A stretch of DNA of 64,000 nt, taken from Patescibacteria group bacterium (GTDB lineage Bacteria; Patescibacteriota; Microgenomatia; UBA1400; PJMF01). The stretch covers positions 9,092 through 73,091 of the forward strand of contig JBMORQ010000027.1 in the NCBI GenBank assembly GCA_049322575.1. Reading direction: 5' to 3'. Below the pieces are notes generated by a model. It was not told where the DNA came from, made no database searches, and saw only the letters and a list, made by a program, of their open reading frames with translations. Within the stretch, counting starts at the first letter, position 1. The number at the start of each line of letters is the position of its first letter. The translations under genes and the position numbers were made by a program. This document shows positions 58,414 through 64,000 of the stretch, in pieces.

Positions 58414-60321
58414 ATGAACACTGGTTTCTTTAAGAAATGTTTGATTCTTTTGATAGGTCTTCTCGCTCCTTTTACTAGCCAACCAATCCGTGCTGAAACG
58501 AAACATTTTGAGAGCTATCTAAACACTACATACTCGGTTAATGAAGATGGCTCAACATATGTTGAACATAATTTCCAAATCAAGAACTTAACACCAACTT
58601 TCTTTGTCAACAAATACGGTCTTCAATTAAGTTCTGGAAATATCGCTGATGTTCGTGTCACCAACGGCAATCAAGCTATTGATGCTGAAGTTGTTAACAC
58701 GGACAACAAAACAACTGTTGGCATTACTTTCCCAGACAAGGTTGTTGGTGAAGGGAAAATAAGACGCTTTACCATAAGTTACAAAAATGAGGATATTTCT
58801 CAAGTTTCTGGCCAAGTATTAGAAGTCAGCATCCCAAAATTAAACGATCCCACTGCTTACGATAAGTATGGTGTGACTCTAATCACTCCTTTGAAATTCG
58901 GCTATCCAAACCGTGTTACTCCTGAATCGTTTACCCAACAAATTGCCGGCAATAAGGTCGAGCTACACTTTAGTAATCTGGCCGGCCAAAGCATTTCCGC
59001 AATCTATGGTGAAAAACAAATCTTTGAACTCAAGCTTCGTTATATACTCGAAAACGATCGTAACCAACCTGTAATTAGCCAAATTACTTTACCTCCAGAT
59101 ACCTCCTTCCAAACAGTGCACTACCAAACTATCGAGCCAAAACCGCAAAAAATTGAGCTCGATAATGATGGTAATTGGATAGCCACTTACCAGTTGAACA
59201 ACAACTCCCAGGTTGAAATAAAGGCTCAAGCCAAAGTAATGCTTACGCTTGATCAAAATAAAGAAATACCTGTCTTTCTACCAACCGGAAACCACCTCAA
59301 AACCAAAGAATATTGGCCAGTTAAAAACCCCGACATCATCACTCTTGCAACTCAAAATCCCACTGCAGAGGACATCTATAATTTTACGTCCACTACACTT
59401 AGCTACACTACAGAGCCTCTATCAATTGATCTGAAACGTCTTGGTGCTCAAGCAGCAATCGAAAATCCCAGCAAGTCAACTTGCCAAGAATTCACTGATG
59501 TCTTCATAACATTGGCTAGAGCCAATGACATACCAGCTCGCCGTGCAACCGGCTTTGCCTATTCCGAAAATGAAAAGCTTCGTCCACTCAGTCTACCTGG
59601 TGACGTCCTGCATGCTTGGCCAGAATTTTTCGACCAAGAAAAGAAAGTATGGAGACCGATTGACCCCACCTGGGGAAATACAGCTGGCGGAGTAGATTAC
59701 TTCAACCAATTTGATCTAAACCACATAGTCTTCGCCTTTAATGGAGAATCAAGCGAACGACCCTACCCAGCCGGTTCATACCTGCAATCAGAGACACCCC
59801 AAAAAAACGTTGAGGTAACCTTTGCCAAAGATTTTCCAGAGACCCAAACCAAAATACTTGCCACTCTCAAGCCTCAGAAGATTGGTTTTATTGACTTTCC
59901 TGGAACATACCGTTTAGAACTGGAAAATGCTACGGGTCGCGCATGGTACAACCTTAATGTCAGTTATCGAACTGATGATCCAGAAACATTAATATCAACC
60001 CAAGAAAATCGGCAGCTCATTCTCCTGCCTTATCAAAAAATTGAAGTGCCTTTTAGGGTTTATAATAGGTCTTTGTCATCATCTTTTGACAAACAAATAC
60101 AAATCATCGTCGAAGTTGGTAAAAAAGATAGCTTAACTCATGACTTCCAAGTCAACTCAATCCCAGAATTCAACAGCCTCAACCAATATAAAGTCCTTTT
60201 CTCCCTCTTGGTCTCAGGAAGTATCATCGGCGCCCTTACAACCGGGAGTCTACTCGTTTTTAGACGCAGAAAACAAAATTCTCTACGTGGGAAAAGCCAA
60301 AAAACTGAGGAATCGACTTAG
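58414..60321 (+). CDS. Secreted transglutaminase-like (papain-fold) enzyme with signal peptide and C-terminal TM anchor.
   Basis: Signal peptide (LILLIGLLAPFTSQPIRA). Catalytic Cys in STCQEFTDVFITLARANDIPARRATGFAY. His in DVLHAWPEFF. Asp in RPIDPTWG. C-terminal TM helix plus basic tail. Starts 4 nt after uvrA. Confidence 0.7.
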   Translation: MNTGFFKKCLILLIGLLAPFTSQPIRAETKHFESYLNTTYSVNEDGSTYVEHNFQIKNLTPTFFVNKYGLQLSSGNIADVRVTNGNQAIDAEVVNTDNKTTVGITFPDKVVGEGKIRRFTISYKNEDISQVSGQVLEVSIPKLNDPTAYDKYGVTLITPLKFGYPNRVTPESFTQQIAGNKVELHFSNLAGQSISAIYGEKQIFELKLRYILENDRNQPVISQITLPPDTSFQTVHYQTIEPKPQKIELDNDGNWIATYQLNNNSQVEIKAQAKVMLTLDQNKEIPVFLPTGNHLKTKEYWPVKNPDIITLATQNPTAEDIYNFTSTTLSYTTEPLSIDLKRLGAQAAIENPSKSTCQEFTDVFITLARANDIPARRATGFAYSENEKLRPLSLPGDVLHAWPEFFDQEKKVWRPIDPTWGNTAGGVDYFNQFDLNHIVFAFNGESSERPYPAGSYLQSETPQKNVEVTFAKDFPETQTKILATLKPQKIGFIDFPGTYRLELENATGRAWYNLNVSYRTDDPETLISTQENRQLILLPYQKIEVPFRVYNRSLSSSFDKQIQIIVEVGKKDSLTHDFQVNSIPEFNSLNQYKVLFSLLVSGSIIGALTTGSLLVFRRRKQNSLRGKSQKTEEST

Positions 60322-61517: not shown

Positions 61518-61874
61518 GTGAAAGCTATAATTCGAACAATTATTGCCATCGCCATCCTAGCCTGGATTTTGCCGACAGTTGATTATTTAAATTGGACAAC
61601 ACTCTTAATCGCCGGGGTGGTTTTAACCATTCTTCAAAGTGTGATTAAACCCATACTAAAATTATTTTTCTTGCCGGTCAATATTGTGACATTTGGGCTT
61701 TTTTCTTTAGTTATCAACGTGATAATAATCTGGTTGCTAACTTTTCTGGTTCCCGGAATGCGCATTGATAACATTGTGCTGTTTGGTGTACCTCTGAACA
61801 GTTTTTTCTCTTTGTTATTGGTTTCAAGTCTGATCAGCTTTCTACAATCGTTTATCAGGTTTTTTATCAAGTAA
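61518..61874 (+). CDS. DUF360 / phage-holin-family-4-like small membrane protein (4 TM).
   Basis: 118 aa, four hydrophobic helices. GTG start after GAGG. Confidence 0.55.
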   Translation: MKAIIRTIIAIAILAWILPTVDYLNWTTLLIAGVVLTILQSVIKPILKLFFLPVNIVTFGLFSLVINVIIIWLLTFLVPGMRIDNIVLFGVPLNSFFSLLLVSSLISFLQSFIRFFIK

Positions 61875-61898: not shown

Positions 61899-62888
61899 AT
61901 GAAAAAAATTGTCATAAGCCTCTTTTCACTACTGTTGTTTGGTATTGTCCTGGGAGTTACCTCTCCAGAACGATATCAAGCTGAGGCACAAGAAACAAAC
62001 GGCTCTATAGAAATTCTTGAGGTTTTTGATCAAGATGGCAACCTATTTGACTCTGCCACTGATAGCAGCGAAGCAACTAACACCGGCAAGCTCGCCTCAG
62101 TTTCAGCAGAGGTTGAACAGAAAATTCAAGAAAAAAAGGATAAAGACATTACAGACACTAGTGGAAAGCAAAAGGGCAAATTAGCGTCATACCTTGACGA
62201 ACACCCAACCGGACCACTTTCTTGGCACAATCCTCTGCAAGTTGCCATCCGTGCCGCCATTGAAAAAGGTCTACCTGCCAATATTATTGTTCTATTACTG
62301 ATGTTTCCGATCATCGCCTCAATTATTGCCGCCTCTAGACATGTGGTTGGACTCAAAGGATTTGGTATCTATATTCCCGCCGTTTTAGCCGTTGCTTTGG
62401 TTTCAACAGGCATTCTAACCGGTCTGACGATTTTCATTGTCGTTTTAGCTGCCGCAATAGCAACCAGAACGATCATTAGAAAATTTCGCATGCCATATTT
62501 GCCAAGAACAGCCATGTTGATGTGGGGTGTATCGATTGTTACCCTGCTAGTTTTAATCGGTTCGGTTATTATGATAGAGAACTCAACCCTTCTCACTATC
62601 AGCATCTTCCCTGTGCTTATCATTATTCTTTTAACAGAAAATTTTATAGAATCTCAACAATTTAACAGCCAAAAAGAGGCCATAAAACTAACTGTGGAGA
62701 CCATTTTCTTGTCAATTCTCTGTTCCATATTCATCAGTAACGAGACGCTCCAAAAGGTTGTCATCCTGCGTCCAGAATTAACTCTACTTTTAGTTGCCTT
62801 TATCAACTATGCCATCGGCAAATACTCTGGACTAAGATTTCTAGAATACCTACGTTTTAGAGAAATTCTTAATAACAACAATGAGTAA
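61899..62888 (+). CDS. Seven-TM membrane protein of the 7TM/ATP-grasp-associated family (7TM-ITG-like, but lacking the inactive transglutaminase domain).
   Basis: Signal/TM helix, about 110 aa low-complexity ectodomain, then seven hydrophobic helices. The stop overlaps the start of the ATP-grasp gene by 8 nt (ATGAGTAA). Confidence 0.65.
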   Translation: MKKIVISLFSLLLFGIVLGVTSPERYQAEAQETNGSIEILEVFDQDGNLFDSATDSSEATNTGKLASVSAEVEQKIQEKKDKDITDTSGKQKGKLASYLDEHPTGPLSWHNPLQVAIRAAIEKGLPANIIVLLLMFPIIASIIAASRHVVGLKGFGIYIPAVLAVALVSTGILTGLTIFIVVLAAAIATRTIIRKFRMPYLPRTAMLMWGVSIVTLLVLIGSVIMIENSTLLTISIFPVLIIILLTENFIESQQFNSQKEAIKLTVETIFLSILCSIFISNETLQKVVILRPELTLLLVAFINYAIGKYSGLRFLEYLRFREILNNNNE

Positions 62889-64000
62889 AGCATCTGAAAT
62901 CTTGGGCATGAATGCCCGAGAGCAATTCTATTCTCGCCTTAATTCCACTCAAGCAAAGAGTGTCTGCAAATCTAAGTTGGCTACAAAACTCCTGATGCAA
63001 AGTAGAGGTATTCCTACGGCAGAGTTTTATGGCATCTTTGCCTTACCAGAGGATGTGAACGGTTTCGATTGGCAAAGCCTTCAAAAAAACTTCGTTATTA
63101 AACCAACCAACGGTCACGCAGGTAAGGGTGTAGTGGCATTTAAAACCCAACACCCAACTAAAGCAAACACTTGGATTGATGCCATTGGAAGAGAGTGGTC
63201 CCTAGATGACATCAAACTGCACTGCTACGACATTCTGGAGGGTCAATACAGTACTCATGGCTCACAGCACAACGTTATCATTGAAGAACGTATTCCCATC
63301 CATCCTAAACTACTCAAATACACCTACAAGGGCACACCTGACGTCCGTGTGGTGGTGTATAACAATGTACCAGTCATGGCAAAACTCCGCTTGCCCACTA
63401 AAGAATCGGAGGGACGTGCCAATGTAACCCAAGGCGCCATCATGACAGGCATCGACATCGCCACTGGTGTTACTACCTATGCCGTAGCCCACAAAACTCA
63501 GATGATTAAATATTTGCCAGGAACAAAAAAGAAGCTTAATGGCATACTCATCCCTCAGTGGAACAGGGCGCTAAAAATCTCGGTAGAGGCTACAATGGCT
63601 GCCAATCTTATGTACTGCGGAGTCGACCTATTTTTTCACGAAGAAAAAGGACCGATGGTTGTGGAATTGAATGCTTTTCCGGGACTTTCGATCCAAGTAG
63701 CCAACAAGGCTGGCTTACGACGCAGGCTTTCTAGGGTTGAAGATCTCAATGTACTTAACGCAGAACATGGGGTAAGAATAGGCCAGGCACTTTTCGCGGA
63801 AAGTTTTTCCGACAAAATTACCGCTGAAGATGGCCTAACTATCATTTCAGCCAACGAGACAGTGAAAATTCAAGCCGAGAATAGACGTTCTATCGAGACC
63901 TTGGCACTAATCAACACTGGCCGTTATCGATCAGCTATATCAAGCAAGCTTGCTAGCGAAATTGGCCTGATTGATGTTGACGATTTGCTCTGGTTTCAAC
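62881..64000 (+). CDS. RimK-related ATP-grasp amidoligase (alpha-L-glutamate-ligase-like), 3'-partial; runs off the window edge.
   Basis: N-terminus ILGMNAREQFYSRLNSTQAKSVCKSKLATKLLMQSRGIPTAEFYGI. ATP-grasp motifs IKPTNGHAGKGV, VVVYNNVPVMAKLRLP, MYCGVDLFFHEEKGPMVVELNAFPGL. No stop codon before 64000. Confidence 0.75.
   Translation, partial: MSKASEILGMNAREQFYSRLNSTQAKSVCKSKLATKLLMQSRGIPTAEFYGIFALPEDVNGFDWQSLQKNFVIKPTNGHAGKGVVAFKTQHPTKANTWIDAIGREWSLDDIKLHCYDILEGQYSTHGSQHNVIIEERIPIHPKLLKYTYKGTPDVRVVVYNNVPVMAKLRLPTKESEGRANVTQGAIMTGIDIATGVTTYAVAHKTQMIKYLPGTKKKLNGILIPQWNRALKISVEATMAANLMYCGVDLFFHEEKGPMVVELNAFPGLSIQVANKAGLRRRLSRVEDLNVLNAEHGVRIGQALFAESFSDKITAEDGLTIISANETVKIQAENRRSIETLALINTGRYRSAISSKLASEIGLIDVDDLLWFQ

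Follow-up and report, generated by a model that had tools for sequence, protein, structure and literature searches.

Systems that join a seven-helix membrane protein (7TM) to an ATP-grasp ligase were reportedly first predicted in the amidoligase paper of Iyer et al. from 2009. The RloABC system of Pseudomonas aeruginosa has been examined genetically and biochemically (Lormand et al., mBio, 2025, PMC12239564), which corrects the view of the first-pass annotation of this DNA that such systems are experimentally uncharacterised. In pathogens, the Rlo system influences biofilm, cell shape and the tolerance of antibiotics and of hypo-osmotic conditions, and 96% of RloB matches are found in Proteobacteria (PMC12239564). 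Canonical copies of RloABC also turned up in this analysis, in Legionella adelaidensis and Aeromonas caviae (L085, L086). In the RimK/RimB system, poly-Glu is handled by a cytoplasmic ATP-grasp ligase and a cytoplasmic peptidase element, and poly-Glu is a ligand and cleavage substrate of both RloA and RimB (PMC12239564). On the eukaryotic side, human MATCAP and the TMCPs act as carboxypeptidases on C-terminal Tyr/Glu and as deglutamylases (PMC10499314).

The window, i.e. the whole 64,000-nucleotide stretch of Patescibacteria DNA analysed here, contains a variant of the Pseudomonas Rlo system that is new in its Patescibacteria form (Table 1). Patescibacteria are mostly uncultured. As in RloABC, a PF14402 7TM gene lies directly upstream of, and is start/stop-coupled to, a cytoplasmic ligase that belongs to ATPgrasp_ST and resembles TIGR02291 below the cut-off of that model, and a retropepsin-like element of the DUF785 lineage accompanies the pair. 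The membrane protein, however, lacks the inactive transglutaminase ectodomain of the ~508 aa RloB. No secreted RloA is present, the retropepsin-like domain being fused to the ligase with its Asp lost, and the third gene instead encodes a predicted cytoplasmic MATCAP-type metallocarboxypeptidase. The 7TM protein has a Glu-terminated tail, whereas the two canonical RloB proteins examined, whose eraser is a periplasmic endopeptidase, have C-termini that are not acidic, and the host belongs to the Patescibacteria whereas RloB matches are mainly proteobacterial (PMC12239564). As the window ends within the ligase gene, a contig identical to it (L001, 0 mismatches over 12,102 nt) was used to extend the locus past position 64000.

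Table 1 Features of the module and its upstream neighbours, in window positions
Feature	Position	Strand	Size or residues	Match or basis
Secreted, C-terminally anchored transglutaminase-like protein gene	58414..60321	+		Transglut_core, E 5.2e-13
Small 4-TM protein gene between uvrC and 7TM gene	61518..61874	+		PF04020, E 1.1e-20
7TM membrane protein gene	61899..62888	+	329 aa	PF14402, E 1.4e-23, aa 130-323
Cytoplasmic C-terminal tail of 7TM protein: helix G-K/R-Y-x-G-L-R-x-x-E-x-x-R-F, then ...REILNNNNE	62826..62885	+		Predicted docking/acceptor site
Overlap of 7TM stop and ligase start (ATGAGTAA)	62881..62888	+	8 nt	Read from sequence
Ligase gene, cut by window end	62881..64000 (full end at window-equivalent 64164)	+	427 aa full length	
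ATP-grasp catalytic domain	62917..63741	+	aa 13-287	PF14397, E 5.5e-59
Start of retropepsin-like domain, cut by window end	63838..64000	+	aa ~320-427	
NTGR motif replacing catalytic DTGA	63913..63924	+	Asn345	Orthologue alignment
MATCAP-like Zn-carboxypeptidase (predicted), beyond window	64187..65119 (window-equivalent; L001 12289..13221)		310 aa	PF08014, E 2.1e-22

The 7TM protein is a member of the Pfam family 7TM_transglut (PF14402; 84.1 bits in a Pfam profile search, where the cut-off is 25) without a transglutaminase domain. No transglutaminase match was obtained in its reading frame in the Pfam search, PF14402 being confined to aa 130-323, and the NCBIfam RloB model NF052267 aligned only over model positions 315-507 of 508, which correspond to the 7TM part, and reached 58 bits where the cut-off is 900. 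Hydropathy and an AF2 model agree on an N-terminal signal/anchor helix at aa 2-20, disorder from aa 22 to 65 and three short ecto-helices, so that the N-terminal 126 aa consist of disorder and short helices where an inactive transglutaminase would be expected, followed by seven TM helices (aa ~127-309) and, at the C-terminus, an amphipathic helix. This short form is not peculiar to the window, as the best 120 homologues have 283-394 aa and PF14402 as their sole domain, and all 80 measurable orthologues reach at most 366 aa. The reading frame, its seven helices and its lack of a transglutaminase fold had all been proposed in the first-pass annotation and are borne out, and membership in PF14402 speaks against an unrelated transporter family.

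The ATG of the ligase lies at 62881 and the TAA of the 7TM gene at 62886..62888; the overlap of 8 nt that had been claimed can thus be read directly and, on the letters alone, indicates translational coupling. Across loci the distance between the two genes stays between -41 and +36 nt in 79 of 80 cases. The ligase itself groups with the RloC/TIGR02291-type subfamily and not with housekeeping RimK, GshB or CphA: PF14397 (ATPgrasp_ST) was matched with 200 bits (cut-off 31.4), and the top NCBIfam match was TIGR02291 'alpha-L-glutamate ligase-like' (226.6 bits, under its cut-off of 314.2), while canonical RimK (TIGR00768) gave 58.8 bits (cut-off 143.4) and the CphA and GshB models scored far lower than PF14397 and TIGR02291. 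The earlier assignment to the 'alpha-L-glutamate ligase-related' group is thereby upheld, and the C-terminal extension expected past the window was recovered on L001, where the ligase runs to its full length. Homologues are abundant (1966 at E<=1e-10, the best 120 of them having 411-434 aa), and identities of 60-72% are kept across many Patescibacteria species. Residues K74, R156, R179, N181, D249, E262 and N264 are invariant in 78 of 78 orthologues and, by analogy, probably make up the ATP/Mg-binding set. The E-values of the domain matches in the 7TM protein, the ligase and the upstream transglutaminase are all far beyond chance.

Gene order is equally well conserved. Among 80 species-level genomes, the 7TM gene stands immediately 5' of the ligase in every one, and a MATCAP gene is next in 63. 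The 7TM-ligase-MATCAP triad is also found in places other than beside uvr genes, and in a remote lineage that recodes TGA, and the three-gene module conserved across Patescibacteria is real. These patterns bear on the ordinary alternative that the ligase modifies ribosomal protein S6 in the manner of RimK and that the 7TM gene is merely adjacent, which would fit the weak RimK-family similarity (PF08443 E 2e-11, TIGR00768 58.8 bits) but is extremely improbable with a RimK score well under its cut-off, a best match to the RloC-type family, a 7TM gene adjoining and often overlapping the ligase start in all 80 genomes, and an extra RimK-family ligase, in addition to the module ligase, in some loci (L080). 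In the same way the system differs from RimK/RimB, in that its ligase remains below the RimK cut-off, has an obligatory membrane partner and carries a protease-like domain that is fused and inactive.

The C-terminal domain of the ligase has a retropepsin fold as in the DUF785/PF05618 (RimB/RloA) type; in the Pfam search, the PF05618 model itself found no match in it and only weak gag-asp_proteas matches were obtained. In the alignment of 78 ligase orthologues, the column of residue 345 holds N in 59, K in 10, H in 3, S in 1 and D in 5 sequences, next to a T346 that is present in all 78. Judged by this alignment, the catalytic Asp of the fused domain in the window is lost. The second signature of the fold is kept, with a C-terminal G-R-D/N-type motif (G415 in 78/78, R416 in 76/78 and D418 in 77/78), which we take to be the equivalent of the GRD/N motif of retroviral proteases. 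As the same D-to-N change inactivates RloA, where D48N served as the catalytically dead control in the RloABC study (PMC12239564), the fused domain is read as dead.

A protease had been guessed as the third partner, and it was found in both forms, as the ligase-fused retropepsin-like domain without its Asp and, on the extended contig, as a Zn-peptidase gene (PF08014, MATCAP/DUF1704) directly downstream of the ligase. The NTGR domain is the sole retropepsin-like element of L001, in which an RloA-type secreted retropepsin gene is absent. The downstream protein is a full-length homologue of the catalytic domain of eukaryotic MATCAP/TMCP1-2 (KIAA0895L, KIAA0895). It matches human MATCAP (7z5g) with E 3.6e-34 over the entire catalytic domain, is ~32% identical to it when counted on the printed alignment, and aligns with residues 144-461 of the human chain 7z6s_C, with no counterpart to the N-terminal part of that construct of 471 residues. 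The blocks HEIxTHYLR, TEEGLA and KRGxTDTSxPG are common to both proteins, and HEIQTH lines up with the human HEIGTH, the position that is mutated to HQIGTH in 7z6s_C. HExxxH is found in 60 of 60 full-length MATCAP-like orthologues. The EEG motif, which provides the third metal ligand in MATCAP/TMCP (PMC10499314), occurs in 59 of 63 orthologue reading frames, with TEEGLA in the protein of this locus as in human. A search for a hydrophobic segment in this protein returned none.

Other peptidases can occupy the same slot. In L009, L011, L055 and L056 a stand-alone DTGA gene, read as an active retropepsin, takes the place of MATCAP; PF05618 was confirmed for L009, L011 and L056, and the assignment of L055 comes from reading its sequence. 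A strict coupling of Asp loss in the fused domain to the presence of MATCAP was considered and rejected, as L081 combines a DTGA fused domain with MATCAP and as five loci whose fused domain is inactive lack any nearby peptidase gene.

The transglutaminase-like gene upstream of the module is real, keeps its triad (Cys357/His400/Asp417) in 53-55 of 55 orthologues and looks active by its residues, but its proposed role as a substitute for the domain missing from the 7TM protein is unsupported. It occurs only together with uvrA and uvrC (58 loci), physically overlaps uvrC, and is missing wherever the module occupies another context; because of this restriction, membership in the module was rejected as unsupported. 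It has no match to the RloB model. The small PF04020 gene has the same position in 63 of 81 loci, a set that practically coincides with the uvr-context loci. Neighbours of the module include uvr genes, mnmA, RmuC and pilins. PADLOC defence models gave no match to the five proteins at E <= 0.001, and matches in a promoter/terminator scan were no more frequent than the shuffled expectation.

The paradigm of a RimK acceptor is a C-terminus of the ribosomal protein S6 type, ending in Glu-Glu. The tail of the 7TM protein, which would be on the cytoplasmic side following the positive-inside rule, resembles such an end. G311, L312, R313, E316, R319 and F320 of its helix are invariant in the orthologue alignment. 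The last residue is E in 57 of 79 orthologues (72%), 38 of which (48% of all) end in EE, compared with 11.7% and 1.6% among 247 control genes from the same loci that are likewise tightly trailed by a downstream gene. Tail length varies between 6 and ~30 residues, and the terminal Glu is nevertheless retained. Many EEEE tails have a coding sequence of the GAAGAGGAA type, which could double as the ribosome-binding site of the ligase, and GAG accounts for 39% of terminal Glu codons versus 28% of other Glu codons. A Shine-Dalgarno constraint may therefore contribute to GAGGA-containing tails; as a sole explanation it was rejected because coupled controls seldom end in E or EE. Glu-ended tails were found in 51 of 63 loci with MATCAP versus 3 of 12 without, an association that fades when relatives are collapsed (p = 0.0035 for clusters of 80% identity and 0.06 for 70%, with no significance left at 65%). 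The remaining 28% of tails have no final Glu, 12 MATCAP-bearing loci among them. The 7TM protein's own Glu-ended tail would seem the likeliest acceptor of the ligase.

Starting from what can be observed directly, namely domain identities, motifs that are intact or lost, conserved gene order, the alternation of peptidase types and Glu-terminated tails, the module may be read as a membrane-tethered system in which writer, reader-like domain and eraser build and trim short acidic peptide tails, to which a probability of roughly 0.45 is given. The cytoplasmic RloC/RimK-like ligase would act as the writer and extend a free C-terminal carboxylate, at the expense of ATP, by amino acids, most probably glutamate in alpha linkage. 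Translational coupling would keep the ligase in a fixed ratio to the 7TM protein, on whose conserved cytoplasmic helix it would sit and whose Glu-ended tail it would most likely accept as substrate. The retropepsin-like domain without Asp would bind the acidic tail, much as poly-Glu is held by the active RloA and RimB, and the cytoplasmic MATCAP-type Zn-carboxypeptidase encoded downstream would strip the added C-terminal residues. By analogy with the role of Rlo in hypo-osmotic tolerance and cell shape, the state of the tail could adjust an activity of the 7TM protein that is related to the envelope.

Alternatively, the module could function in Rlo-like export, with free poly-Glu or another acidic peptide made in the cytoplasm and passed or displayed by the 7TM protein, while the MATCAP-like enzyme limits or recycles it and the tail serves as docking site or pseudo-substrate. 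When the periplasmic RloA proteases of P. aeruginosa are lost, additional loss of rloB or rloC acts as a suppressor, which implies that the products of these two genes make something in need of cleavage outside the cytoplasm, and the periplasmic location of the eraser likewise suggests an exported product and not a modified cytoplasmic tail (PMC12239564). RimK is capable of synthesising free poly-alpha-glutamate (PMC12239564), PF14402 is common to RloB and the 7TM protein, and about a quarter of the 7TM tails are not acidic. Export is judged rather unlikely. In the Patescibacteria form, with all enzymes predicted to be cytoplasmic, a strict carboxypeptidase as predicted eraser and a 7TM tail ending in Glu, the tail is a concrete acceptor candidate that is cheap to test. 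Much less probable than export is a ligase acting on an envelope molecule other than a protein, for instance a glycopolymer or lipid-linked precursor handled by the 7TM protein. The name of PF14397, 'sugar-transfer associated ATP-grasp', derives from members linked to sugar transferases, and mutants of Rlo and of inactive transglutaminases show envelope, cell-shape and vesicle phenotypes (PMC12239564; PMC12096838), but no glycosyltransferase or polysaccharide gene is linked to the module in 80 loci and its conserved partners are peptidases, which act on peptide bonds.

Tail building and trimming by writer, reader and eraser also invites a comparison with tubulin, where TTL/TTLL and MATCAP likewise appear to pair an ATP-grasp writer with a MATCAP eraser on an acidic C-terminal tail (PMC10499314). 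The target must differ as there is no tubulin here, and the ligase lies outside the TTL family (PF03133 E ~0.1). A bacterial 'tail code', in which the Glu tail of the 7TM protein is reversibly extended by the ligase, read by the dead retropepsin and trimmed by the MATCAP-type enzyme, is a doubtful but specific form of this reading. If it were true, the pairing of ligase and MATCAP in the tubulin code would predate its use on tubulin, as a bacterial operon, and the trimming enzyme would be a prokaryotic protein closely related to the tubulin detyrosinase/deglutamylase of eukaryotes. That an ATP-grasp operon contains a full-length human MATCAP homologue bears on the origin of tubulin tail-modifying enzymes; in the literature searched, which did not cover Iyer et al. 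2009, no paper was found that links a MATCAP homologue with an ATP-grasp ligase operon.

For Rlo and other 7TM/ATP-grasp systems the substrate is still not identified (PMC12239564). The Patescibacteria variant is highly conserved among species with very small genomes and offers a cleaner configuration. Its operon slot also provides a natural series, from an active fused retropepsin, through an inactive fused domain with MATCAP, to an inactive fused domain with a stand-alone active retropepsin, which illustrates the displacement of one peptidase type by another. The QEGLA proteins (TIGR02421) share the Pfam family PF08014 with the MATCAP-like protein, which differs from them in scoring 78 bits against the TIGR02421 cut-off of 338.65 and in having TEEGLA as in eukaryotes. 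In Photobacterium damselae at low salinity, a QEGLA gene and the GshB-annotated ATP-grasp gene with the preceding locus tag were induced 27-fold and 38-fold (PMC10308900).

The gene for the 7TM protein ends in a TAA codon that overlaps the ATG of the ATP-grasp ligase gene by 8 nt, as the first-pass annotation had read from the sequence. Its description of the 7TM protein was also accurate: the layout read from hydropathy matches that of an AlphaFold2 model (pLDDT 71.7), with an N-terminal signal/anchor helix, an ectodomain with a disordered stretch (aa 22-65) and three short helices, seven TM helices and a C-terminal amphipathic helix. The transglutaminase domain reported missing is indeed absent, as the Pfam match to 7TM_transglut (PF14402, E 1.4e-23) is restricted to aa 130-323 and the NCBIfam model of RloB, which describes an 'inactive transglutaminase fused to 7TM' protein, aligns solely via positions 315-507 of 508, its 7TM part. 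One public contig, L001 (Logan SRR32167786), encodes this exact 7TM protein; over the 12,102 bases that it has in common with the window there is no difference, and it runs 2.7 kb beyond. There the ligase reaches 427 aa, with the C-terminal extension (aa ~312-427) that had been expected past the window end. The anticipated protease partner downstream proved to be of the Zn-peptidase type, a MATCAP-family gene (PF08014, formerly DUF1704; 310-311 aa) that starts 19-22 nt past the ligase stop and is followed by mnmA, while the retropepsin-like domain also considered is the ligase extension itself, with its Asp lost. At NCBI the exact three proteins come from a Patescibacteria MAG and are named '7TM domain-containing protein', 'sugar-transfer associated ATP-grasp domain-containing protein' and 'tyrosine/phenylalanine carboxypeptidase domain-containing protein'.

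Features of the window and of related loci (coordinates refer to the window unless another contig is named)
Feature	Location	Strand	Remarks
Transglutaminase-like gene	58414..60321	+	Secreted, C-terminally anchored; Transglut_core domain, conserved Cys-His-Asp triad
Overlap of this gene with uvrC	60140..60321		Includes coding for the C-terminal membrane anchor
Small 4-TM protein gene, PF04020 ('phage holin superfamily IV')	61518..61874	+	Between uvrC and 7TM gene, 63/81 loci
7TM protein gene	61899..62888	+	329 aa; stop TAA 62886..62888
Ligase gene	from 62881		ORF open at window end
Stand-alone DTGA gene replacing MATCAP, region	L009 8286..9717
Stand-alone DTGA gene replacing MATCAP, region	L011 8287..9708
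Stand-alone DTGA gene replacing MATCAP, region	L055 8282..9635
Stand-alone DTGA gene replacing MATCAP, region	L056 4535..4894
7TM gene of L082	224..1765		In-frame TGA aligned with a conserved Gly (VVG)
Archaeal relative of the ligase ATP-grasp domain (H3)	Halobacterium sp. DL1 plasmid CP007061.1 106170..107024		31% identity, E 5e-34

With one genome taken per species, 329 genomes encode a relative of the ligase, and in the best 80 of these loci the 7TM gene lies directly 5' of the ligase gene in every case (spacing -41 to +36 nt in 79), so that the synteny of the pair is conserved throughout. None of the measurable 7TM orthologues exceeds 366 aa, and thus none has a transglutaminase domain. 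A MATCAP gene follows the ligase in 63 of the 80 loci, mostly at -35 to +25 nt. Four loci (L009, L011, L055 and L056) have this slot filled by a small separate gene encoding a DTGA motif, while the surrounding gene order is otherwise unchanged; three of these genes are PF05618 retropepsins by Pfam, and that of L055 was judged from sequence alone. A second ATP-grasp gene follows the DTGA gene in all but L056, and that of L009 is similar to the ATP-grasp portion of cyanophycin synthetase (partial match to TIGR02068, 254 bits). Among the most divergent loci, L080 combines a DTGA-bearing fused domain with a RimK-family ligase, L081 has DTGA in the fused domain together with MATCAP, and several others contain the 7TM-ligase pair alone, adjoining RmuC. 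As the pair is constant and the peptidase varies, the core of the module is 7TM protein plus ligase with an interchangeable peptidase element. The alternation argues strongly, on comparative grounds, for equivalent roles of MATCAP-type and retropepsin-type peptidases in this module. The triad also occurs in unrelated genomic contexts (L083) and in L082, from a lineage in which TGA serves as a sense codon and the ligase has no fused domain. The aligned Gly suggests that TGA means Gly in this lineage, which would make it a code-25-like group of Patescibacteria; with the codon translated, the 7TM protein includes an N-terminal ectodomain of ~300 aa that matches no Pfam family. Many loci (L003, L007, L010 and L013 among them) have a Patescibacteria-type gene order and 60-69% identical proteins yet are titled 'uncultured Pseudomonadales', 'Vitreimonas sp.' or 'candidate division TM6', which are probably taxonomic mislabels.

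The ligase matches ATPgrasp_ST (PF14397, E 5.5e-59). Its best NCBIfam score is with TIGR02291, 'alpha-L-glutamate ligase-like protein' (226.6 bits, under the 314.2 cut-off), whereas RimK (58.8 bits), cyanophycin synthetase and GshB all fall far below, which agrees with its earlier assignment to this subfamily rather than to the housekeeping enzymes. The C-terminal extension is kept in length and sequence in the best 120 homologues (411-434 aa, 60-72% identical). Sequence searches hardly recognised it: among 18 members, 11 had weak Pfam matches to gag-asp_proteas. A profile of the domain, run against 1.8 billion representative proteins, led to a family with the consensus ...AKIDTGA...LIGRRDL, the retropepsin signature. 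In the window's ligase this reads ALINTGR (Asn345). Across 78 full-length orthologues the catalytic Asp column holds N in 59, K in 10, H in 3, S in 1 and D in 5, while the neighbouring Thr and a distal Gly-Arg-x-Asp are essentially invariant; D48N is the substitution of the catalytically dead RloA control of Lormand et al. (PMC12239564). Of 13 representative ATPgrasp_ST ligases that carry this domain and have 400 aa or more, 10 have Asp (full DTGA in 8), 2 Asn and 1 Ala; the fusion is therefore widespread and the loss specific to the window's clade. As the most divergent ligases (L080, L081) also retain a canonical KIDTGAW at aa ~345, the fused domain was probably active ancestrally. A PDB match of aa 312-427 to homeodomains (Engrailed-2, CDX-1; E 0.1; alignment A2) was dismissed as chance, the predicted fold being an all-beta retropepsin; it arises from an LGL..x..LLWFQ stretch resembling the homeodomain WFQN helix.

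Human MATCAP/KIAA0895L, a tubulin-tail carboxypeptidase, has a crystallised catalytic domain with which the MATCAP-like protein aligns from end to end (aa 9-309, E 3.6e-34). The bacterial protein scores only 78 bits on TIGR02421, the proteobacterial QEGLA model. Three blocks common to the bacterial and human proteins (HEIQTHYLRSMNNKNQPW vs HEIGTHYLRGVNNARQPW, TEEGLANLH vs TEEGLASLH, and RKKRGLTDTSQPGGFTKDIVYLEG vs RAKRGQTDTSLPGCFSKDQVYLDG) contain the HExxxH motif and EEG third metal ligand defined for TMCP1/MATCAP, which takes C-terminal Tyr and Glu off tubulin tails and shortens polyglutamate chains (PMC10499314). HExxxH is present in every full-length orthologue and EEG in nearly all. No signal peptide or other hydrophobic segment was found in the orthologues, and the enzyme is thus predicted to be cytoplasmic.

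In all 7TM orthologues a G-K/R-Y-x-G-L-R-x-x-E-x-x-R-F helix past TM7 leads into a tail of 6 to ~30 residues, placed by the positive-inside rule in the cytoplasm, the same compartment as ligase and MATCAP. Glu is the last residue in 57 of 79 proteins, with Glu-Glu in 38 (e.g. IIEEEE, NSQEEE, DDQSE, PGLEE and ETEE; NNNNE in the window). GAGGA recurs in many of the EEEE tails, and terminal Glu codons are GAG somewhat more often than other Glu codons (39% vs 28%). Constraint from a ribosome-binding site is nevertheless insufficient as the sole cause, because 247 other genes of the same loci, tightly followed by a downstream gene, seldom end in E (11.7%) or EE (1.6%). Glu-terminated tails accompany MATCAP in 51 of 63 loci vs 3 of 12 without it (Fisher p = 3e-4), an association that weakens when relatives are collapsed (p = 0.0035 at 80% identity, 0.06 at 70%, not significant at 65%). 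The tail of the MATCAP-bearing, TGA-recoding L082 lineage ends in ...HLQEE; two canonical RloB proteins, one each from Legionella and Aeromonas and both paired with a periplasmic endopeptidase, have ...AKARS and ...PGKDK as their C-termini. The acceptor of RimK on ribosomal protein S6 is likewise a Glu-Glu C-terminus, and the substrate of MATCAP is an acidic tail.

The best reading of the module is a membrane-tethered writer/reader/eraser system. The analysis establishes the identity of the domains, the state of their motifs, the gene order, the alternation of peptidases and the make-up of the tails; we infer the added residue, acceptor, binding role and physiological output. The ligase would extend a C-terminal carboxylate, most likely that of the 7TM partner's tail, by residues that are probably alpha-linked Glu, and MATCAP would trim the tail back. 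The dead retropepsin domain may bind the acidic tail, by analogy with active RloA and RimB, which hold poly-Glu via conserved Lys and Arg residues (PMC12239564). Alternatively, and as the main rival, a free acidic peptide could be passed to or through the 7TM protein in an Rlo-like export, which P. aeruginosa genetics favours but which fits poorly with a module whose peptidase elements are all predicted to be cytoplasmic. Modification of a glycopolymer or plain S6 modification by the ligase is poorly supported.

The locus is not categorically new. Models in Pfam and NCBIfam cover all parts, the 7TM/ATP-grasp/retropepsin association was reportedly predicted in 2009, and RloABC is a known system of this kind. 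The first-pass interpretation is supported in its core, although its statement that such systems are uncharacterised no longer holds for RloABC, studied genetically and biochemically in 2025 (PMC12239564); for the substrate, the locus supplies a concrete hypothesis. RloABC has a transglutaminase ectodomain on its 7TM protein and a secreted active retropepsin, both lacking here, and a ligase of the TIGR02291 type, below whose cut-off the window's ligase scores. As several defining features are missing, the locus is a relative of RloABC rather than a member. Four points appear to be new: the fused retropepsin domain is inactivated throughout the clade, the third gene is regularly a MATCAP-type carboxypeptidase, the 7TM tails terminate in Glu, and the module is broadly distributed and well conserved in Patescibacteria. 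In the literature searched, no paper ties MATCAP/KIAA0895 to ATP-grasp ligases or treats prokaryotic homologues; the locus places a close homologue of a human tubulin-modifying enzyme in a bacterial operon. In one transcriptome study, a proteobacterial DUF1704 (QEGLA) gene was co-induced at low salinity with an ATP-grasp gene annotated as GshB, whose locus tag directly precedes its own (PMC10308900), a response that echoes the osmotic phenotype of Rlo.

The upstream transglutaminase-like enzyme noted earlier is real, secreted and conserved in its triad; a role as stand-in for the domain missing from the 7TM protein is not supported. It lies beside the module in 58 loci, all of which also have uvrA and uvrC, and is missing wherever the module has another genomic context. 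Its 3' end overlaps the uvrC 5' end out of frame in 54 of 54 loci examined. Because of this restricted context and the overlap, it cannot be treated as an in-trans replacement. Judged across these loci, the overlap is unusually long and conserved, with the UvrC PGVY motif 31-190 nt within the transglutaminase ORF in all 54. The small PF04020 protein is unlikely to be a phage holin, since it is conserved in a housekeeping context. The automatic gene call on L001 sidesteps the overlap by a late uvrC start, whereby part of the GIY-YIG domain is lost.
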